From IMG/VR virus record IMGVR_UViG_2585427786_000006: a DNA stretch of 43,020 nt, one strand, 5' to 3'. Position 1 is the first letter of the stretch. Each line of letters begins with the position of its first letter. The DNA is from a virus. Taxonomy: Duplodnaviria > Heunggongvirae > Uroviricota > Caudoviricetes. The notes beneath the pieces are model-generated. The model was not told where the DNA came from, made no database searches, and saw only the letters and a program-made list of their open reading frames with translations. Position numbers and translations under genes: made by a program. Positions 3,436 to 41,782 of this stretch are shown here, piece by piece.

Positions 3436-3610
3436 TATCGCGTCCTCAACAATGAATTTTGTGATGCAGTGCCTGGTGCCTCCAGGTGACGTTAACCAGT
3501 TAACAATTAACGCCGGATACAGAGAATCCACCCATAACACTGTTTTTGGTTTTAACTGTTCCGCGTGCGCTTAGCCGCATTCACCGCATCACAAAATTCA
3601 CTTTAAAAAC

Positions 3611-3662
3611 GGCGGCAGAGCAGTCACGGAGTAAAACTGATACCGCCAAACGTCACCAGAAA
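3611..3662 (-). ncRNA. dicF: DicF small RNA
   Basis: Reverse complement reads TTTCTGGTGACGTTTGGCGGTATCAGTTTTACTCCGTGACTGCTCTGCCGCC followed by GTTTTT, recognised as DicF with its intrinsic terminator. Confidence 0.8.
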
Positions 3663-6046: not shown

Positions 6047-6848
6047 ACGCCCACTGGTTATAAACACACAGCTTGCGATGAAGATTGGCTTAAATGAAGC
6101 CATTGTGTTGCAGCAGTTGCATTACTGGTTGAGAGATACCAATTCCGGCATGGAATGTGATGGTGTTCGCTGGATTTACAACACAACGGAACAATGGCTG
6201 GAACAGTTCCCATTCTGGTCAGAGTCAACGTTAAAGCGCGCGTTTGCAAGTCTGAAAACGCTGGGGCTTTTGCGTTGTGAAAAGCTCAATAAATCAAAGC
6301 GCGATATGACCAATTTCTACACGATCAACTATGGGAGCGAGCTTTTAGATGGTGGCAAATTGAACGAATCCATCGGTTCAAAATGCGCCGCTCCATCAGG
6401 TCAAAATGACACGATGGAAGAGGTCAAAATGAAACGCTCCATTGGTTCAAAACGACCCAATGTCATCGGGTCAAAATGGCCTGATGATCTTACAGAGAAT
6501 ACAACAGAGATTACTACAGAGAATAAAAACACTTTTCGTCCGGAAGCTTCGCAACCGGACCTGCAGACCGCTGAACAGGATTTTTTAATCCGGAACCCCG
6601 ACGCGGTTGTGTTTAGTGCGAAAAAACGCCAGTGGGGTAGCAGGGAGGATTTGGCGTGTGCGCAGTGGATTTGGGGGCGGATCGTGAACCTTTACGAACA
6701 GGCTGCCTTTAAGGAGGACTTGTGGCAAAAGTTTTTACACAGGAAGAGCGGGAAAAAATTAAAGAGCAGGTGGTCGAACTTGTGCGCCAGAGCGGTCGCG
6801 AGACATTACGACAGTTGGAAGCTAAAACAGGTGCGACAAGATATCTGA
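6027..6848 (+). CDS. replication initiator (replisome-organizer N-terminal domain), contains origin iterons
   Basis: MSLLFAERPLVINTQLAMKIGLNEAIVLQQLHYWL... typical of phage replisome organizers; iteron array lies inside the gene as in lambda O. Confidence 0.6.
   Translation: MSLLFAERPLVINTQLAMKIGLNEAIVLQQLHYWLRDTNSGMECDGVRWIYNTTEQWLEQFPFWSESTLKRAFASLKTLGLLRCEKLNKSKRDMTNFYTINYGSELLDGGKLNESIGSKCAAPSGQNDTMEEVKMKRSIGSKRPNVIGSKWPDDLTENTTEITTENKNTFRPEASQPDLQTAEQDFLIRNPDAVVFSAKKRQWGSREDLACAQWIWGRIVNLYEQAAFKEDLWQKFLHRKSGKKLKSRWSNLCARAVARHYDSWKLKQVRQDI
6370..6479. repeat. origin iterons: five copies of about 15 bp (consensus CATCGGGTCAAAATG), followed by an AT-rich ACAGAGA-repeat segment (6480-6530)
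   Basis: Direct repeats at about 6370, 6393, 6416, 6439, 6463 spaced 23-24 bp apart, encoding repeated IGSK peptide motifs. Confidence 0.55.
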
Positions 6849-7144
6849 TGAGCATTCTTGCCAGAGAGCTGGTTGCCAGTGGTTATGTATACAACTCCGG
6901 CTACGGGTTATTCCCGTCTGAACAGGCACGAAAGGACTGGCAAAATGCCCGCAAAAAACTCTCTAGGGCGAAGGTGAAGAAACCCGCTGTGGTTGATCCG
7001 GACCTTATCTGGTCACTACCTGATGGAGAAATACGTCGCTACGACAGTCGTCTAAACATAATCTGTCGCGAGTGCCGGAAGAGTGAAGCTATGCAGCGTG
7101 TACTGGCTTTCTATCAGGGTAATTTTCAGGAGGCGGTACTGTGA
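6722..7144 (+). CDS. hypothetical protein (140 aa) with HTH-like segment, replication-module partner
   Basis: GTG start 5 nt after AAGGAGG; overlaps the 3' end of the initiator gene; upstream frame closed by TAA at 6710-6712. Confidence 0.5.
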   Translation: MAKVFTQEEREKIKEQVVELVRQSGRETLRQLEAKTGATRYLMSILARELVASGYVYNSGYGLFPSEQARKDWQNARKKLSRAKVKKPAVVDPDLIWSLPDGEIRRYDSRLNIICRECRKSEAMQRVLAFYQGNFQEAVL

Positions 7145-7201
7145 GTGAAATTAGCTATCAGGCTTCAATTACCGCTGGCATTAGCATCAAAGGAGAGGAG
7201 C

Positions 7202-7558
7202 ATGGAAATAAAACCAGAGGATTAGTTAAGCAATATCGTTTTATTTCCGATAAAAGAGGATGACCCTCGTAATCAGGTTAATTTTCTTTATGAGCCATCG
7301 GAAAGACCATATTGCCATCACGCTTCTGTCCGGGTTGACGAAAAAGAGCGTCAGGTCCGCTGTAAAATCTGAGGTGCAGTTGTGGAGCCATTTGACTGGA
7401 TGCTCTCTGTGGCGAAAAGAGAAACCAGACTGGCAGATGATGTAAGGCTCTTGCGCCAGGAGGAACGGGAAAGACGAAAAAATATAGAAAAGCTAATTCA
7501 GATTGAGCGTAACGGGAAAGCGCGGATACGCAGGGTGACAAAATCCAGAACTGAATAA
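7202..7558 (+). pseudogene. 118-codon reading frame with strong SD, interrupted by in-frame TAG (7223-7225) and TGA (7370-7372)
   Basis: AAGGAGAGGAG then ATG at 7202; protein-like translation on both sides of each stop, with basic C-terminal coiled-coil-like tail. Confidence 0.35.
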
Positions 7559-7826
7559 TTAAATTTAGCACTGTTAAAAATTTAATCCTTAACCGGAGGG
7601 ATTTCTGCACCCTCAGAACATCAGGAGGCCGCCCGAAAGGGCGGTAGTTAAATGCGAAAGTTTAAAATAATTATTGAAACGGGAATAGCCGGTGGAGATT
7701 TCGAGGATGAATTCGAAGTGGATAATGATGCGACGCCTGATGAAATACATGACGAAGCAAAAGATATTTTCTTTAACTACTGCAATTAATCATATCACGA
7801 AATAAAAGACGAAGAGGAAGAACAAA

Positions 7827-8003
7827 ATGGCTGATTTTGGTTCAACTAAATACAACGTCGGTTTTGAAGAATGGCATGAACTGTTAATGGACTATGCAGA
7901 GTTACGTGGTGGCAGTGCTGCTGATGCTGAAGCATGGCGTGATGATTATGAAGCAGGAAAAACTCCGGTCGAAGCATATTGTGATGAGTGGGGCGATGAA
8001 TGA
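7827..8003 (+). CDS. hypothetical acidic small protein (58 aa)
   Basis: GAGGAAG RBS 7 nt before ATG; MADFGSTKYNVGFEEWHELL...; stop overlaps the next ATG (ATGA). Confidence 0.35.
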   Translation: MADFGSTKYNVGFEEWHELLMDYAELRGGSAADAEAWRDDYEAGKTPVEAYCDEWGDE

Positions 8004-8485
8004 GCGAGGTTAATTATCAGGAAGGGCATGAAACGGCGGGGCAAGCAAAAACAGTGGCATGGCGATATCGCTACGTGAAAAAAAGGCGTTACGGACTTTC
8101 AGGGGAAGTAGTGGTCTGGTGACTGGAAATATGTACCGAAAAAAGAGGATTGTAACGATAGGCCGAACTATGAAATTCAGGCCTTATTCACTGCCCCGCC
8201 AGTCCCGGTTACATCAGAAGAACTGGTTAAAGCTGTGCACTTTTATGAACAACTAAAACGCGAAAATCCACCAGCATCCGGAAACCTGATTACAGGTTCC
8301 CAGATAAGGCAATGAGCTACCTGGCGCAGAACGGGCTGATAAGTATGGGGAATGTTTTACGATGAATATTTAGACTAAAGAGTTTGTAACGCTATGTAAG
8401 TGATTTTTTCTGGTTTAGATATTTATATGTCCGGCTAAATTGAGGTGTGTTTAAATGTTATTGCACATTGATTGTAGGGGGAATA

Positions 8486-8665: not shown

Positions 8666-8922
8666 ATACAGCGAACTCCATTGGTTTAGTTGGATATTTA
8701 CTGTGCTGGACAAAACGGTTTGCGGGGAAATCTTAGTTAAGTAGAATGACTGCGGGTGCTTGAGGCTATCTGCCTCGGGCACGAACACCAACGGCAGGTA
8801 GAGAAAAGCCCCAGTTAACATTACGCGTCCTGCAAGACGCTTAACATTAATCTGAGGCCAATTTCATGCTAGACACATGTAGGTTAGCCTCTTACGTGCC
8901 GAAAGGCAAGGAGAAGCAGGCT

Positions 8923-9078
8923 ATGAAGCAGCAAAAGGCGATGTTAATCGCCCTGATCGTCATCTGTTTAACCGTCATAGTGACGGCACTGGTAACGAGG
9001 AAAGACCTCTGCGAGGTACGAATCCGAACCGGCCAGACGGAGGTCGCTGTCTTCACAGCTTACGAACCTGAGGAGTAA
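8923..9078 (+). CDS. hokD: Hok-family type I toxin (51 aa)
   Basis: MKQQKAMLIALIVICLTVIVTALVTRKDLCEVRIRTGQTEVAVFTAYEPEE recognised as HokD/RelF; AAGGAG RBS; in-frame upstream extension from ATG 8866. Confidence 0.8.
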   Translation: MKQQKAMLIALIVICLTVIVTALVTRKDLCEVRIRTGQTEVAVFTAYEPEE

Positions 9079-16394: not shown

Positions 16395-16757
16395 ATTAAT
16401 ATTAAATCGGATTATTTTTAGCGCTGAATGTGAAATTTAAATAAAAAGGACTCTTCCATGAGTCAAAATCCTTGAAATCTTAAGGGTAAGATAAAAGGTC
16501 ATTAGACAGAATGACACGTTTTATTAATAAATAAAGCTATTGTTTCATTCGTGTGTTTTTCTTTACAAAAGTAATCCTTGCTATGGTTGGTTAATCATGC
16601 GTTAATGGTGTTCTGGTTTGTTACAAAATTATCTGAAGCAGTCATTGTTATAATTTTATTATTTGTACCTCTTGAGATTTCCTTGTTGGTTTTTCTCTCT
16701 GATATTTTTTTTCGGACCATTCTGCCCAAGGGCTAACTTCTTCAAAAGGTAATAATG

Positions 16758-16970
16758 ATGTCTAACAAAATGACTGGTTTAGTGAAATGGTTTAACCCTG
16801 AAAAAGGTTTTGGTTTCATCACGCCGAAAGATGGTAGCAAAGATGTGTTTGTCCATTTCTCAGCTATTCAGAGCAACGATTTCAAAACGTTAACTGAGAA
16901 TCAGGAAGTCGAATTTGGTATTGAGAACGGACCTAAAGGCCCCGCGGCTGTTCATGTTGTGGCACTTTGA
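16758..16970 (+). CDS. cspI: cold-shock protein CspI-like (70 aa)
   Basis: [39 protein letters not shown]... with RNP motifs; long AT-rich 5' leader upstream. Confidence 0.85.
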
Positions 16971-17169
16971 GGTAGAAAATATTACAAACCATATTCACTT
17001 TAGATGCCCGTGTTGCCATGGTTCTCAGTATAGAACATCATCTTTTGATGTTTCTGACAGGAATCCTTTCGGGGCAAAATGTATCTTTTGTAAATCAATG
17101 ATGATTACATTTGATAATATTTCACAATACTTAAATGTTAGCCGTCTGTCGTTAGATTTAAGAAAGTGA
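16954..17169 (+). CDS. YnfN-like Cys-rich small protein
   Basis: ...[54 protein letters not shown]; ATG overlapping the cspI 3' end; start uncertain. Confidence 0.4.
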
Positions 17170-28075: not shown

Positions 28076-28413
28076 CGCGGGAAATGCAGTTTGTCATGCG
28101 GCTTGCCCGGGAGTTCCGGCGGGCAGACTGGCGGCGGATGCTGTCGGAAATGTCGGCCACTGAGCTTGGTGAGTGGGGCGATTATTTCCGGATGCAGAGC
28201 TTCAGTGATGTGTGGATGGATGCGCAGTTTGCCTCGCTGAAGGCATTGATCGTGAGAATGGTGTCCGGCAGCAGTGATGCTGCGGTGGCTGATTTCAGCC
28301 TTTTACCGGAAGAGAACGGGATACCGGAGCGAACGGACGAAGAACTGATGCATCTTGGAGAAGGTATTTCCGGAGGTGTGCGTTATGGACCAGATAGCCA
28401 ACCTGGTCATTGA
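28051..28413 (+). CDS. gpT-frame segment, expressed as G-T fusion by programmed -1 frameshift
   Basis: -1 frame open from 28051 through 28413, overlapping the G 3' end; candidate slippery site G GAA AAG at 28063-28069. Confidence 0.55.
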   Translation, partial: GADAGKVLTREMQFVMRLAREFRRADWRRMLSEMSATELGEWGDYFRMQSFSDVWMDAQFASLKALIVRMVSGSSDAAVADFSLLPEENGIPERTDEELMHLGEGISGGVRYGPDSQPGH

Positions 28414-31400
28414 TTTGGGGATTGATGCGGCAGAGTTTAAAAATGAAATTCCCCGTATCAAAAACCTTCTGAATGGTGCCGCCAGCGATGCAGAACGGTC
28501 TTCTGCCCGTATGCAGCGTTTTATGGAGCGTCAGACTCAGGCCGCCCGGCAGACAACGCAGGCGGCTTCTTCGGCTGCAACAGCCGCCTCCGTCCATGCG
28601 CAGACGGTGGAGAAGAACGCACAGGCTCATGAACGCATGGCCCGCGAGGTGGAGAAACCCCGCCAGCGCATGGAGGCGCTGAGCCAGAAAATGCGCGATG
28701 AACAGGCGCAGGCCATGGCTCTGGCGGAGGCTCAGGATAAAGCGGCTGCTGCGTTTTATCGTTAGATTGACAGTGTGAAACAGGCCAGTGCGGGGCTGCA
28801 GGAATTACAGCGTATTCAGCAGCAGATCCGACAGGCCAGAAACAGTGGCGGGATTGGTCAGCAGGATTATCTGGCGCTGATTTCTGAGGTTACGGCGAAA
28901 ACCCGTGTTCTTACACAGGCTGAGGAAGAGGCTACCCGACAGAAAGTGGCGTTTATCCGTCAGCTTAAAGAGCAGGCAACCCGCCAGAATCTTTCATCTT
29001 CTGAGTTGCTTCGTGCTAAGGCAGCCCAGCTGGGGGTAAGCAGTGCTGCAGAAGTGTATATCCGCAAAATGGAGCAGGCAGGAAAAGCCACGCATTCGCT
29101 GGGTCTGAAAAGTGCAGCAGCCCGCCAGGAGATAGGCGTTCTGATAGGTGAACTGGCCCGCGGCAATTTAGGGGCGCTGAGGGGATCCGGGATAACGCTG
29201 GCTAACCGTGCCGGATGGATAGACACACTGATGTCACCGAAAGGCATGATGCTTGGCGGGGTTATTGGCGGTATTGCCGCGGCCGTCTATGGTCTGGGTA
29301 AAGCCTGGTATGACGGTCAGAAGGAGGGGGAAGAATTTAACCGCCAGTTGTCGCTGACGGGGCATTATGCCGGAGTTACTGCCGGGCAGCTGTGGACGCT
29401 CAGTCGTGCTATTTCCGGGAATGGTATCACGCAACATGCTGCAGCCGGTGCGCTGGCTCAGGTGGTGGGGAGTGGTGCATTTCGTGGAAACGATATCGGT
29501 ATGGTGGCGAGAGCTGCCGCACAGATGGAGCGATCGGTTGGCCAGTCGGTCAGCGATACCATAAATCAGTTTAAGCGGCTGAAGGATGATCCTGTAAATG
29601 CCGCGAAGGCTCTGGACAATGAGCTGCATTTTCTTACTGCCACTCAGCTTGAGCAGATACGCGTCCTTGGGGAGCAGGGGCGGTCCAGTGATGCTGCACG
29701 GATAGCCATGTCTGCACTGGCAGAGGAAACCGGTCGGCGTACTGCGGATATTGATAATAACCTCAATGCGCTTGGCAGTACGCTGAAGTATCTGTCTGAT
29801 TTGTGGAGTCGTTTCTGGGATGCGGCCATGAATATTGGTCGTGAAGACTCGCTGGATGAACAGATTGCCGCTTTACAGGAGAAAGTGTCGCGGGCGAAAA
29901 GACTCCCCTGGACGGCATCATCTTCTCAGGTTGAATACGATCAGCAGCGTCTTAACGATCTTCAGGAGAAAAAACGCCAGAAGGATTTGCAGGATGCAAA
30001 AGAGCAGGCAGAGCGGAATTATCAGGAGCAACAGAAACGCCGTAATGCTGAAAATGCTGCACTGAACCGGATGAATGAAACGGAAGCAGCACGACATCAG
30101 CGTGAAATTGCGCGTATTAATGCCATGCAGTACGCCGATCAGGCTGTCAGGGATGCGGCGATACAACGTGAAAATGAACGTTACGAGAAAGCCCTGGCAT
30201 CCGGTAAGAAAAAAACACGCGAAACCCGTAATGATGAGGCCACCCGGTTATTGCTGCAGTACAGCCAGCAACAGGCACAGGTGGAAGGACAGATTGCTGC
30301 TGCAAGACAGTCAGCAGGCATTGCCACTGAAAAGATGACAGAAGCGCATAAACAGCTTCTGGCTCTGCAGCAGCGCATCAGCGATCTGGACGGGAAAAAA
30401 CTGACGGCAGATGAAAAGAGTGTGCTGGCCCGTAAAGATGAACTGATTCAGGCACTGACGCTGCTGGATGTAAAACAGCAGGAGCTTCAGAAACAGACGG
30501 CACTCAACGATCTGAAGAAAAAAACAATTCAGCTGACCAGTCAACTGGCTGAAGAAGAGCGCGCTCAGCGTCAGCAACATGACCTGGATATCGCCACGGT
30601 GGGTATGGGTGATCAGCAGCGGCAGCGATATCAGGTACAACTGAGCCTTCGCCAGAAATACCAGCAACAGCTGGAGCAGTTGAGGCGGGATAGTGAGCAG
30701 AAAGGGACATATAACACGGATGACTACAGAAAGGCCGAGCAGGCGCTGACGGAGAGCCTGAACAGGCAACTGAATGAGAATCGCCGTTACTGGCAACAGC
30801 TTGAAATTGCTCAGGGTAACTGGAAAAACGGTGCCATGCGGGCGTTTCAGAATTTCACGGCAGATGCGGATAATGCGGCAGGCACTGCGGAGCAGATGCT
30901 TACAGCGGCATTTAATAGTGCAGGTAATGCACTGGCTACATTCTGTACCACCGGAAAACTGAACTTCAAATCTTTTACCGCCTCGCTCCTTTCTGATCTG
31001 GCAAAAATCATGGCTCAGATGTCCATGATGCAGACAGTTAAGGGGATTGGTTCGGCGTTTGGCTGGGGGAGTGCAGCAACTGCCAGTGTGACGCCCAATG
31101 CTGATGGTGGTGTTTATCAGTCTGCTGATTTGAGTCGCTACAGTGGCACGGTGGTTAACCGTCCGACGTTTTTTGCTTTTGCAAAAGGTGCAGGTGTGAT
31201 GGGGGAAGCTGGGCCTGAAGCCATTCTGCCTCTGCGTCGTGGTGCTGACGGTAAGCTGGGGGTTGTGGCGGATATTGGTGGTTCAGGTATGGCGATGTTT
31301 GCCCCGCAGTACAACATCGAGATCAATAACGATGGCACGAACGGGCAGATAGGTCCGGCTGCCCTGAAGGTGGTTTATGACCTCGGGAAAAAAGCAGCAG

Positions 31401-31459
31401 CGGACTTTATGCAACAGCAGGCCCGTGATGGTGGTCGGTTAAGTGGAGCATATCGGTAA
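28385..31459 (+). CDS. tail tape measure protein gpH-like, interrupted by in-frame TAG at 28763-28765
   Basis: N-terminus MDQIANLVIDLGIDAAEFKNE... and C-terminus ...INNDGTNGQIGPAALKVVYDLGKKAAADFMQQQARDGGRLSGAYR as lambda H; single frame throughout with one amber codon. Confidence 0.8.
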
Positions 31460-41207: not shown

Positions 41208-41782
41208 TGGTATTCAGAATGAGTGAACAACCACGGACCATAACAATTTATAATCTGCTGGCCGGAACTAATGAATTTATTGGTGAAGGTGATGCATATA
41301 TTCCGCCTCATACAGGTCTGCCAGCAAACAGTACCGATATTGCACCGCCAGATATTCCGGCAGGCTTCGTGGCTGTTTTCAACAGTGATGAGGCATCGTG
41401 GCATCTCGTTGAAGATCATCGGGGTAAAACGGTTTATGACGTGGCTTCCGGCGACGCGTTATTTATTTCTGAACTCGGTCCGTTACCGGAAAATGTTACC
41501 TGGTTATCGCCGGAAGGGGAGTTTCAGAAGTGGAACGGCACAGCCTGGGTGAAGGATACGGAAGCAGAAAAACTGTTCCGGATCCGGGAGGCGGAAGAAA
41601 CAAAAAACAACCTGATGCAGGTAGCCAGTGAGCATATTGCGCCGCTTCAGGATGCTGCAGATCTGGAAATTGCAACGGAGGAAGAAATCTCGTTGCTGGA
41701 AGCATGGAAAAAGTATCGGGTATTGCTGAACCGTGTTGATACGTCAACTTCACAGGATATTGAATGGCCAGCACTGCCGTAG
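41207..41782 (+). CDS. tail fiber assembly protein (Tfa)
   Basis: M(V/A)[42 protein letters not shown]...; TAATG overlap with stf stop. Confidence 0.85.

Follow-up and report, generated by a model that had tools for sequence, protein, structure and literature searches.

Lambda Ea22 is reported to favour lysogeny (PMC7093339, PMC10834534). The locus described here shares with genes for Ead/Ea22-like proteins (PF13935) the last 16 codons of such a gene, which form the end of an ORF starting at 7141, but the window has no Ea22-like domain and the tail remnant is joined to a DUF977 gene. Its closest relatives are the proteins of family phrog_1621, which it matches over their full length and with which it shares its neighbours (DUF977 upstream, DUF7167 and hok downstream). 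The copy in the window differs from these proteins in carrying stops at the codons for the invariant Glu8 and Cys57, so the family protein cannot be encoded. The TFIIB-type zinc ribbon (PF08271) is alike in its Cys/His...CxxC spacing, in a predicted β-hairpin and in a weak resemblance of sequence and fold. The family of the window differs from it in the first knuckle, which is C-H-H where TFIIB has CxxC, and outside the ribbon the protein is a long helix without relation to TFIIB. Bacterial selenoprotein genes, for example fdhF of E. coli, contain an in-frame UGA and a downstream SECIS. The TGA of the window likewise stands at a position that is Cys in homologues, but it is not accompanied by a SECIS-like hairpin, and it is rare, derived and located downstream of an amber codon.

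The DNA analysed here (the window) is a stretch of 43,020 nucleotides, IMG/VR record IMGVR_UViG_2585427786_000006, numbered from its first letter. It is a Qin/Rac-type lambdoid prophage of E. coli and contains DUF977 and YdaT-like genes, DicF, hok/sok, a cspA-type leader and lambda-like late genes. In its early region, the frame at 7202-7558 is very probably an ordinary pseudogene of an accessory lambdoid-prophage gene, inactivated by two sequential nonsense mutations. The pseudogene status is already known from the existing RefSeq/PGAP annotation, where a 99.8%-identical copy is tagged pseudo with the remark 'internal stop'. The present analysis addresses the ancestry of the two stops, the order in which they arose and the other readings of the locus.

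The frame at 7202-7558

The frame that opens with ATG at 7202 is terminated by TAA at 7556-7558 and contains 118 sense-or-stop codons before the terminator; the purine-rich Shine-Dalgarno sequence AAGGAGAGGAG occupies 7190-7200. The preliminary description had reported the ORF, its Shine-Dalgarno sequence, a TAG at codon 8, a TGA at codon 57 and a length of 118 codons, and every coordinate was borne out when the sequence was read again. With a stop probability of 3/64 per codon, about 5.5 stops would be expected by chance in 118 codons, and the probability of two or fewer is ~0.09 by our own calculation; the two stops that are seen are not by themselves beyond chance. The frame is regarded as a real gene because of homology. 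With the two stops replaced, the translation matches phrog_1621 at E=9.3e-55 (residues 1-117 on profile positions 1-120 of 134), and the phages ArgO145, 689R5 and 640R1 carry an intact gene of 118 codons without interruption.

The homology across phage contexts starts 29 nt upstream of the ATG and includes the Shine-Dalgarno sequence. In the DNA search, the matches of ArgO145 and 689R5 begin at query position 74-75, which is 7173-7174 of the window, and a metagenome contig (L014) is unrelated upstream of 7173 and matches from there onward. A promoter and terminator scan of 6700-8100 gave nothing relevant to the gene above shuffle expectation. The features of the locus and of its surroundings are collected in Table 1.

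Table 1. Positions of the pseudogene, its lesions and other features in the window.
Feature	Position	Strand	Basis or remark
Pseudogene of a zinc-ribbon/long-helix prophage gene (phrog_1621 family), 118 codons, 2 internal stops	7202..7558	+	phrog_1621 match and intact homologues
Conserved module leader with the Shine-Dalgarno sequence AAGGAGAGGAG (7190-7200)	7173..7201	+	homology to copies in other contexts starts at 7173
Lesion 1: G to T at 7223 turns GAG (Glu8) into the amber TAG, codon 8	7223..7225	+	alignment to intact homologues
Lesion 2: C to A at 7372 turns TGC (Cys57, second Cys of CxxC) into the opal TGA, codon 57	7370..7372	+	alignment
Synonymous G to A at codon 91, AGG to AGA	7474	+	third and last within-gene difference from the closest intact allele
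Predicted Cys/His zinc-ribbon core, codons 37-60 (YCHH...RCKIC)	7310..7381	+	sub-threshold Pfam match, predicted hairpin, conserved C38/H40/C54/C57
Residual 58-codon GTG ORF, the long C-terminal helix alone	7382..7558	+	ORF list; putative product
40-codon GTG ORF, probable junction remnant: 11 novel codons and an Ead/Ea22-like C-terminal tail	7141..7263	+	27 codons in intact relatives
TTA (Leu) as read by the GTG ORF, where intact relatives stop at TGA	7222..7224	+	stop removed by G to T at 7223
Intact DUF977 (YdaW/Ren-like) gene, 140 aa, stop overlapping the GTG of the remnant ORF	6722..7144	+	Pfam DUF977 E=3.4e-29; phrog_142
Second pseudogene, three genes downstream, frameshift near 8083 and internal stop	8000..8365	+	tblastn against the intact 119-aa protein of 689R5
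DicF antisense RNA	3610-3661	-	Rfam, above gathering score
sok antitoxin RNA, next to the hok-like ORF 8866-9078	8754-8928	+	Rfam, above gathering score
cspA-type thermoregulator leader	16600-17016	+	Rfam, above gathering score
IS009 RNA	41550-41748	+	Rfam, above gathering score

Gene family and predicted protein

DNA of the locus was matched by DNA search in 21 phage records and in 2,097 of the 5,426 complete E. coli genomes. In the protein search, homologues of 114-128 aa were found solely in Enterobacterales (Escherichia, Shigella, Salmonella, Klebsiella, Kluyvera, Erwinia, Pluralibacter, Yersinia and Morganella), none of them with a functional name, and the protein-level matches are labelled 'hypothetical protein' in all 19 of the 19 phage records. 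Examples of the family are ArgO145 gp17 (YP_009907882.1) and the E. coli protein HBB9189513.1.

The intact protein of 118 aa is predicted to start with an acidic, disordered segment, which is followed by a small Cys/His zinc ribbon and, at the C-terminus, by a long basic helix that is highly conserved. In an AlphaFold2 model built with 24 homologues, whose mean pLDDT of 70 is moderate, a disordered N-terminus is followed by a β-hairpin at residues 43-54 and a helix at residues 63-117, in which the pLDDT reaches 93. Residues 36-73 match the Pfam family Zn_Ribbon_TF (PF08271) at 21.6 bits, below the cut-off of 29. A Foldseek search of the PDB returned nothing significant; the top hit was the N-terminal zinc ribbon of TFIIB (1pft), over 27 residues with E=0.27. 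Since Cys57 is the second cysteine of the RCKIC knuckle, it probably binds zinc in the intact protein.

An assignment of function from structure was considered and dropped in view of the pLDDT of 70, the Foldseek E value of 0.27, the sub-threshold Pfam score and the uniform naming of database entries as 'hypothetical protein'.

Sense codons at the two stop positions

The preliminary description had proposed an alignment to homologues in intact lambdoid phages as a check on the two stops. In this alignment both stops are sense codons elsewhere: ArgO145, 689R5 and 640R1 carry GAG at the first position and TGC at the second. In the family alignment of 24 sequences, which includes identities as low as 47%, no variation is seen at E8, C57, C54 or R108, and almost none at C38 and H40. 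The window copy is a disabled member of phrog_1621, in which the invariant set (M1, E6, E8, F15, P16, C54, C57, R108 and others) is broken at codons 8 and 57.

The repaired protein of the window is identical to an intact E. coli protein, HBB9189513.1 (P0122), as found by exact-sequence look-up. Within the gene, the closest intact allele differs from the window at 7223, at 7372 and, synonymously, at 7474 only; the window copy is thus two nonsense substitutions away from a living allele. This near-identical intact allele is present in two E. coli assemblies (L012 and L013). On both of these long contigs, as in the window, the order of genes is YdaT-like, O-like, DUF977, the gene of the phrog_1621 family, DUF7167 and hok.

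Allele frequencies and order of the mutations

Alleles were counted in the 5,426 complete E. coli genomes with 41-mers centred on each variable base, using megablast with a word of 28 bases, so that the matching allele alone can seed. Copies with other nearby variants are overlooked by the 41-mers, and the frequencies are lower bounds. Codon 8 is TAG in at least 91 genomes and GAG in at least 1,192; codon 57 is TGA in at least 32 and TGC in at least 1,553. TAG is present in all 32 of the TGA genomes (27 by cross-listing and 5 by fetched sequence). The amber is therefore the older of the two stops, and the opal was added to a gene that was already dead. The intermediate predicted by this order is found in strain 64, whose copy differs from the intact allele by the TAG alone. 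The background shared by the amber copies, rather than a phylogeny, suggests that the amber arose once.

The following sequence of events is proposed. In a first step, a G to T transversion at 7223 converted the GAG of Glu8 into the amber TAG. With the same change the TGA of the upstream remnant became TTA, so that this ORF grew from 27 to 40 codons. One substitution can close one frame and lengthen the other because the genes overlap. In a second step, on the dead background, a C to A transversion at 7372 converted the TGC of Cys57 into the opal TGA.

Strains 61 (NZ_CP048326.1) and 64 (NZ_CP048322.1) are both environmental; each has two copies of the TAG 41-mer, at near-identical coordinates around 1.9956 Mb. 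The second site is TGA in both copies of strain 61 and TGC in strain 64. This difference could possibly reflect a mutation of very recent date, or gene conversion between prophage segments that are present in duplicate.

Later lesions on amber copies

Several amber copies have acquired further changes. On the TAG background, WP8-S18-ESBL-07 and XJ6.1 carry R116K; MLI023K1 carries R116K together with R108W, which alters an invariant residue; and F5505-C1 carries R116K, R108W and I95T. A 1-nt insertion near codon 91 is present in the TAG copies of Res13-PEB20-37-A and 22F46. The TAG copy of TW14425 combines C54Y, at an invariant Cys, with a frameshift near codons 91-92 and I95T. In 2017.01.04CC (L006, NZ_AP021891.1), the copy has the TGA and an ISApl1 element (IS30-family) between the two stops, at 2557-3531 of L006.

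Point changes that followed the amber are 5 replacement or nonsense to 1 synonymous, compared with ~6:15 in intact alleles (Fisher p ~0.03); the counts are small, and the ratio is suggestive of relaxed constraint after the amber. V17I, A105G and A112V are found in an intact allele and are therefore older than the stops. A count of 8 replacement to 1-3 synonymous changes for the stop lineage, which had included them, was dropped for this reason.

In 22F46 (L019) the neighbouring DUF977 gene is truncated by IS1A. The database protein P0033 presumably ends in a translated IS1 terminus after codon ~107.

The overlapping GTG ORF and the link to Ea22

The preliminary description had stated that an overlapping GTG ORF of 40 codons with its own Shine-Dalgarno sequence complicates the picture. 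The ORF exists and does have such a sequence: its GTG shares bases with the stop codon of the preceding DUF977 gene (GTGA, 7141-7144), and AGGAGG lies at 7128-7133, 7 nt upstream. The complication itself is explained by reading the ORF as a remnant of 27 codons, derived from an Ea22 tail, that was lengthened by the amber mutation. In 640R1 this frame ends in AGIRIKGEEHGNKTRG followed by the TGA at 7222-7224, after 27 codons. In the window and in F5505-C1 it reads Leu at 7222-7224 and runs on to the TGA at 7261-7263. The ORF has 40 and not 27 codons because the G to T at 7223 that makes the amber also turns this TGA into TTA.

The last 16 residues of the Ea22-like protein of ArgO145, again AGIRIKGEEHGNKTRG before the stop, are the same as the tail of the GTG ORF, and they are read from the leader of the gene in the other frame. 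The body of Ea22 is absent in the window and in 640R1, and a junction of 11 codons is left after the DUF977 stop. The GTG ORF would thus be a recombination remnant, as judged from these sequence comparisons, with its present length due to the mutation at 7223. A Pfam search with the 40-aa product gave no match, to the Ead_Ea22 domain (PF13935) or to any other family; the products match phrog_37408 in the 40-aa form and phrog_19884 in the short form.

The window has A at 7183, where every fetched relative has C (AGC versus CGC, Ser versus Arg in the remnant frame). The exact 40-aa product with Ser is recorded on 7 contigs only, for example in E. coli 4-203-08_S3_C2.

In ArgO145 and 689R5, the gene of the phrog_1621 family is located directly downstream of the Ea22-like gene and overlaps it. 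In two homologues from E. marmotae and E. coli (P0004 and P0043), an Ea22-like N-terminus (PF13935) is fused in frame to the zinc-ribbon/helix module (PF08271), and precomputed PF08271 matches are recorded for both of these fused proteins. The zinc-ribbon module is accordingly found in two forms, encoded by an overlapping gene of its own or forming the C-terminal domain of an Ea22-like protein.

Decay elsewhere in the prophage

Decay of the prophage extends beyond 7202-7558; it is seen at 8000-8365, in an amber within the H-like gene and in the truncation of the integrase. The match of the 689R5 protein to 8000-8365 splits into two frames, the second of which contains a stop (tblastn), and the copy in a near-identical strain is annotated by PGAP as 'frameshifted; internal stop'. 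The tape-measure H-like gene at 28355-31459 (+) is interrupted by an amber TAG at 28763-28765 (cgt TAG att), which separates ORFs 28355-28765 and 28775-31459. The window begins with tcaataagttggagtcattacc (1-22), which we take to be the IS1 terminal inverted repeat. On the minus strand, ~23-180 encodes the N-terminal part of an integrase-like ORF (MKYPTGVENHGGKLRIWFVYKG...), abutting the IS1 end; the truncation of the integrase appears to have been caused by an IS1 insertion.

The region of 640R1 equivalent to 8000-8365 is likewise out of frame.

Alternative explanations for the interrupted frame

Sequencing or assembly error as the source of one or both stops is so improbable as to be negligible. 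The same alleles recur across assemblies: TAG is shared by 91 complete genomes and TGA by 32, all sequenced independently and coming from various hosts and countries, and thus the stops are not sequencing errors. A true stop could still be compatible with a full-length product if the locus were recoded, with the TGA at Cys57 read as selenocysteine or read through and the TAG suppressed. The frame is otherwise open and protein-like, and replacement of a Cys of the CxxC by TGA is the positional pattern of Sec/Cys homologue pairs. The predicted signals for recoding were not seen, however. A permissive Rfam scan of 6900-7900 gave no SECIS and no credible family (best E=3.4). The 61 nt at 7370-7430 following the TGA fold with -11.8 kcal/mol, no more stably than shuffled sequences (z=+0.68), and TGC alleles do not differ in the sequence that follows this codon. 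In selenocysteine genes the UGA is conserved or alternates with Cys in functional homologues, but here it occurs exclusively on the background with amber at codon 8, in 32 genomes as against 1,553 with TGC. A suppressor tRNA encoded by the phage was considered, since the H-like gene has an amber as well, and was set aside because ARAGORN found the window free of tRNA genes. Sister amber alleles also carry frameshifts and IS insertions that are beyond rescue by read-through. Programmed recoding is hence very unlikely. The earlier suggestion of read-through at conserved stops as a fallback is not supported, the stops being minority, nested alleles without a recoding signal and with further lesions on amber copies. 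Restart after the amber is not expected, as no in-frame ATG, GTG or TTG is present between codons 9 and 60. PGAP places a start at ATC 7235, which yields a 107-aa protein in amber-only strains and an 'internal stop' pseudogene in double-stop strains; with no in-frame start between codons 9 and 60, this ATC is most likely a convention of the annotation and not a real start. Low-level natural read-through of UAG and UGA, or reinitiation, may take place at the double-stop allele.

The remaining alternatives concern the pieces into which the frame is divided. The 40-aa and 58-aa products are annotated on many contigs (the 58-aa product by gene callers on 234), PGAP retains the 40-aa ORF as a CDS, and both ORFs are preceded by Shine-Dalgarno-like sequences; these observations would fit a set of separate small genes, namely a 7-codon leader, the 40-codon GTG ORF and the 58-codon GTG ORF at 7382-7558. 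Against this, the intact homologues from E. coli and from other genera are without exception one ORF of 114-128 aa that runs across both stops. The 40-codon form occurs solely where the mutation at 7223 has removed the TGA, and the 58-codon ORF is the in-frame C-terminal part of the ancestral gene. The three separate genes that the preliminary description had named as a possible refutation of its reading are not what the homologues display. The alignments refute such an arrangement for the ancestral gene, and there is very little chance that the locus is organised in this way. Partial salvage of the C-terminal part deserves somewhat more weight but is still improbable. The C to A of the opal mutation at 7372 turns GCGG into GAGG (7371-7374), 7 nt upstream of the GTG at 7382, so that a canonically spaced ribosome-binding site could allow a 58-aa helix fragment to be made, with its activity kept or altered, for example dominant-negative. 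No other part of the protein is as conserved, or modelled with as much confidence, as this fragment. However, GAGG-N7-GTG sites are frequent by chance and the allele is rare (32 genomes). Moreover, no conservation of the 58-codon segment is seen after the stops: sister amber lineages have frameshifts and R108W within it, and salvage is for this reason given low weight.

Discussion

The frame at 7202-7558 is thus interpreted as a pseudogene of the phrog_1621 family. Its orthologues are intact single ORFs, the stops are derived and not conserved, and further lesions have accumulated after the first stop, as in nonsense pseudogenes. The preliminary description had favoured prophage decay on the basis of the two stops, the H amber and the integrase truncation. 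That reading is upheld by the replacement of conserved sense codons at both sites, by the nesting of the alleles and by the additional lesions. Judged from its codons, the double-stop allele would not give rise to the full-length protein. If salvage of the C-terminal part did occur, the opal mutation would both destroy Cys57 and free the C-terminal helix as an altered early-region protein. For annotation, a single pseudogene is advisable at this locus in place of the three CDSs that are emitted at present (40-aa, 107-aa with the non-canonical ATC start, and 58-aa).

The intact zinc-ribbon/helix protein is found widely in lambdoid phages, Stx phages among them, in association and sometimes in fusion with Ea22-like proteins; it may serve the Ea22-associated early region as a small regulatory or binding protein. 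The existence of natural knock-out alleles indicates that the gene is dispensable for carriage of the prophage. Intact, amber-only and amber-plus-second-hit alleles coexist in sequenced E. coli, and the locus thus provides an example of the stepwise decay of a prophage gene.
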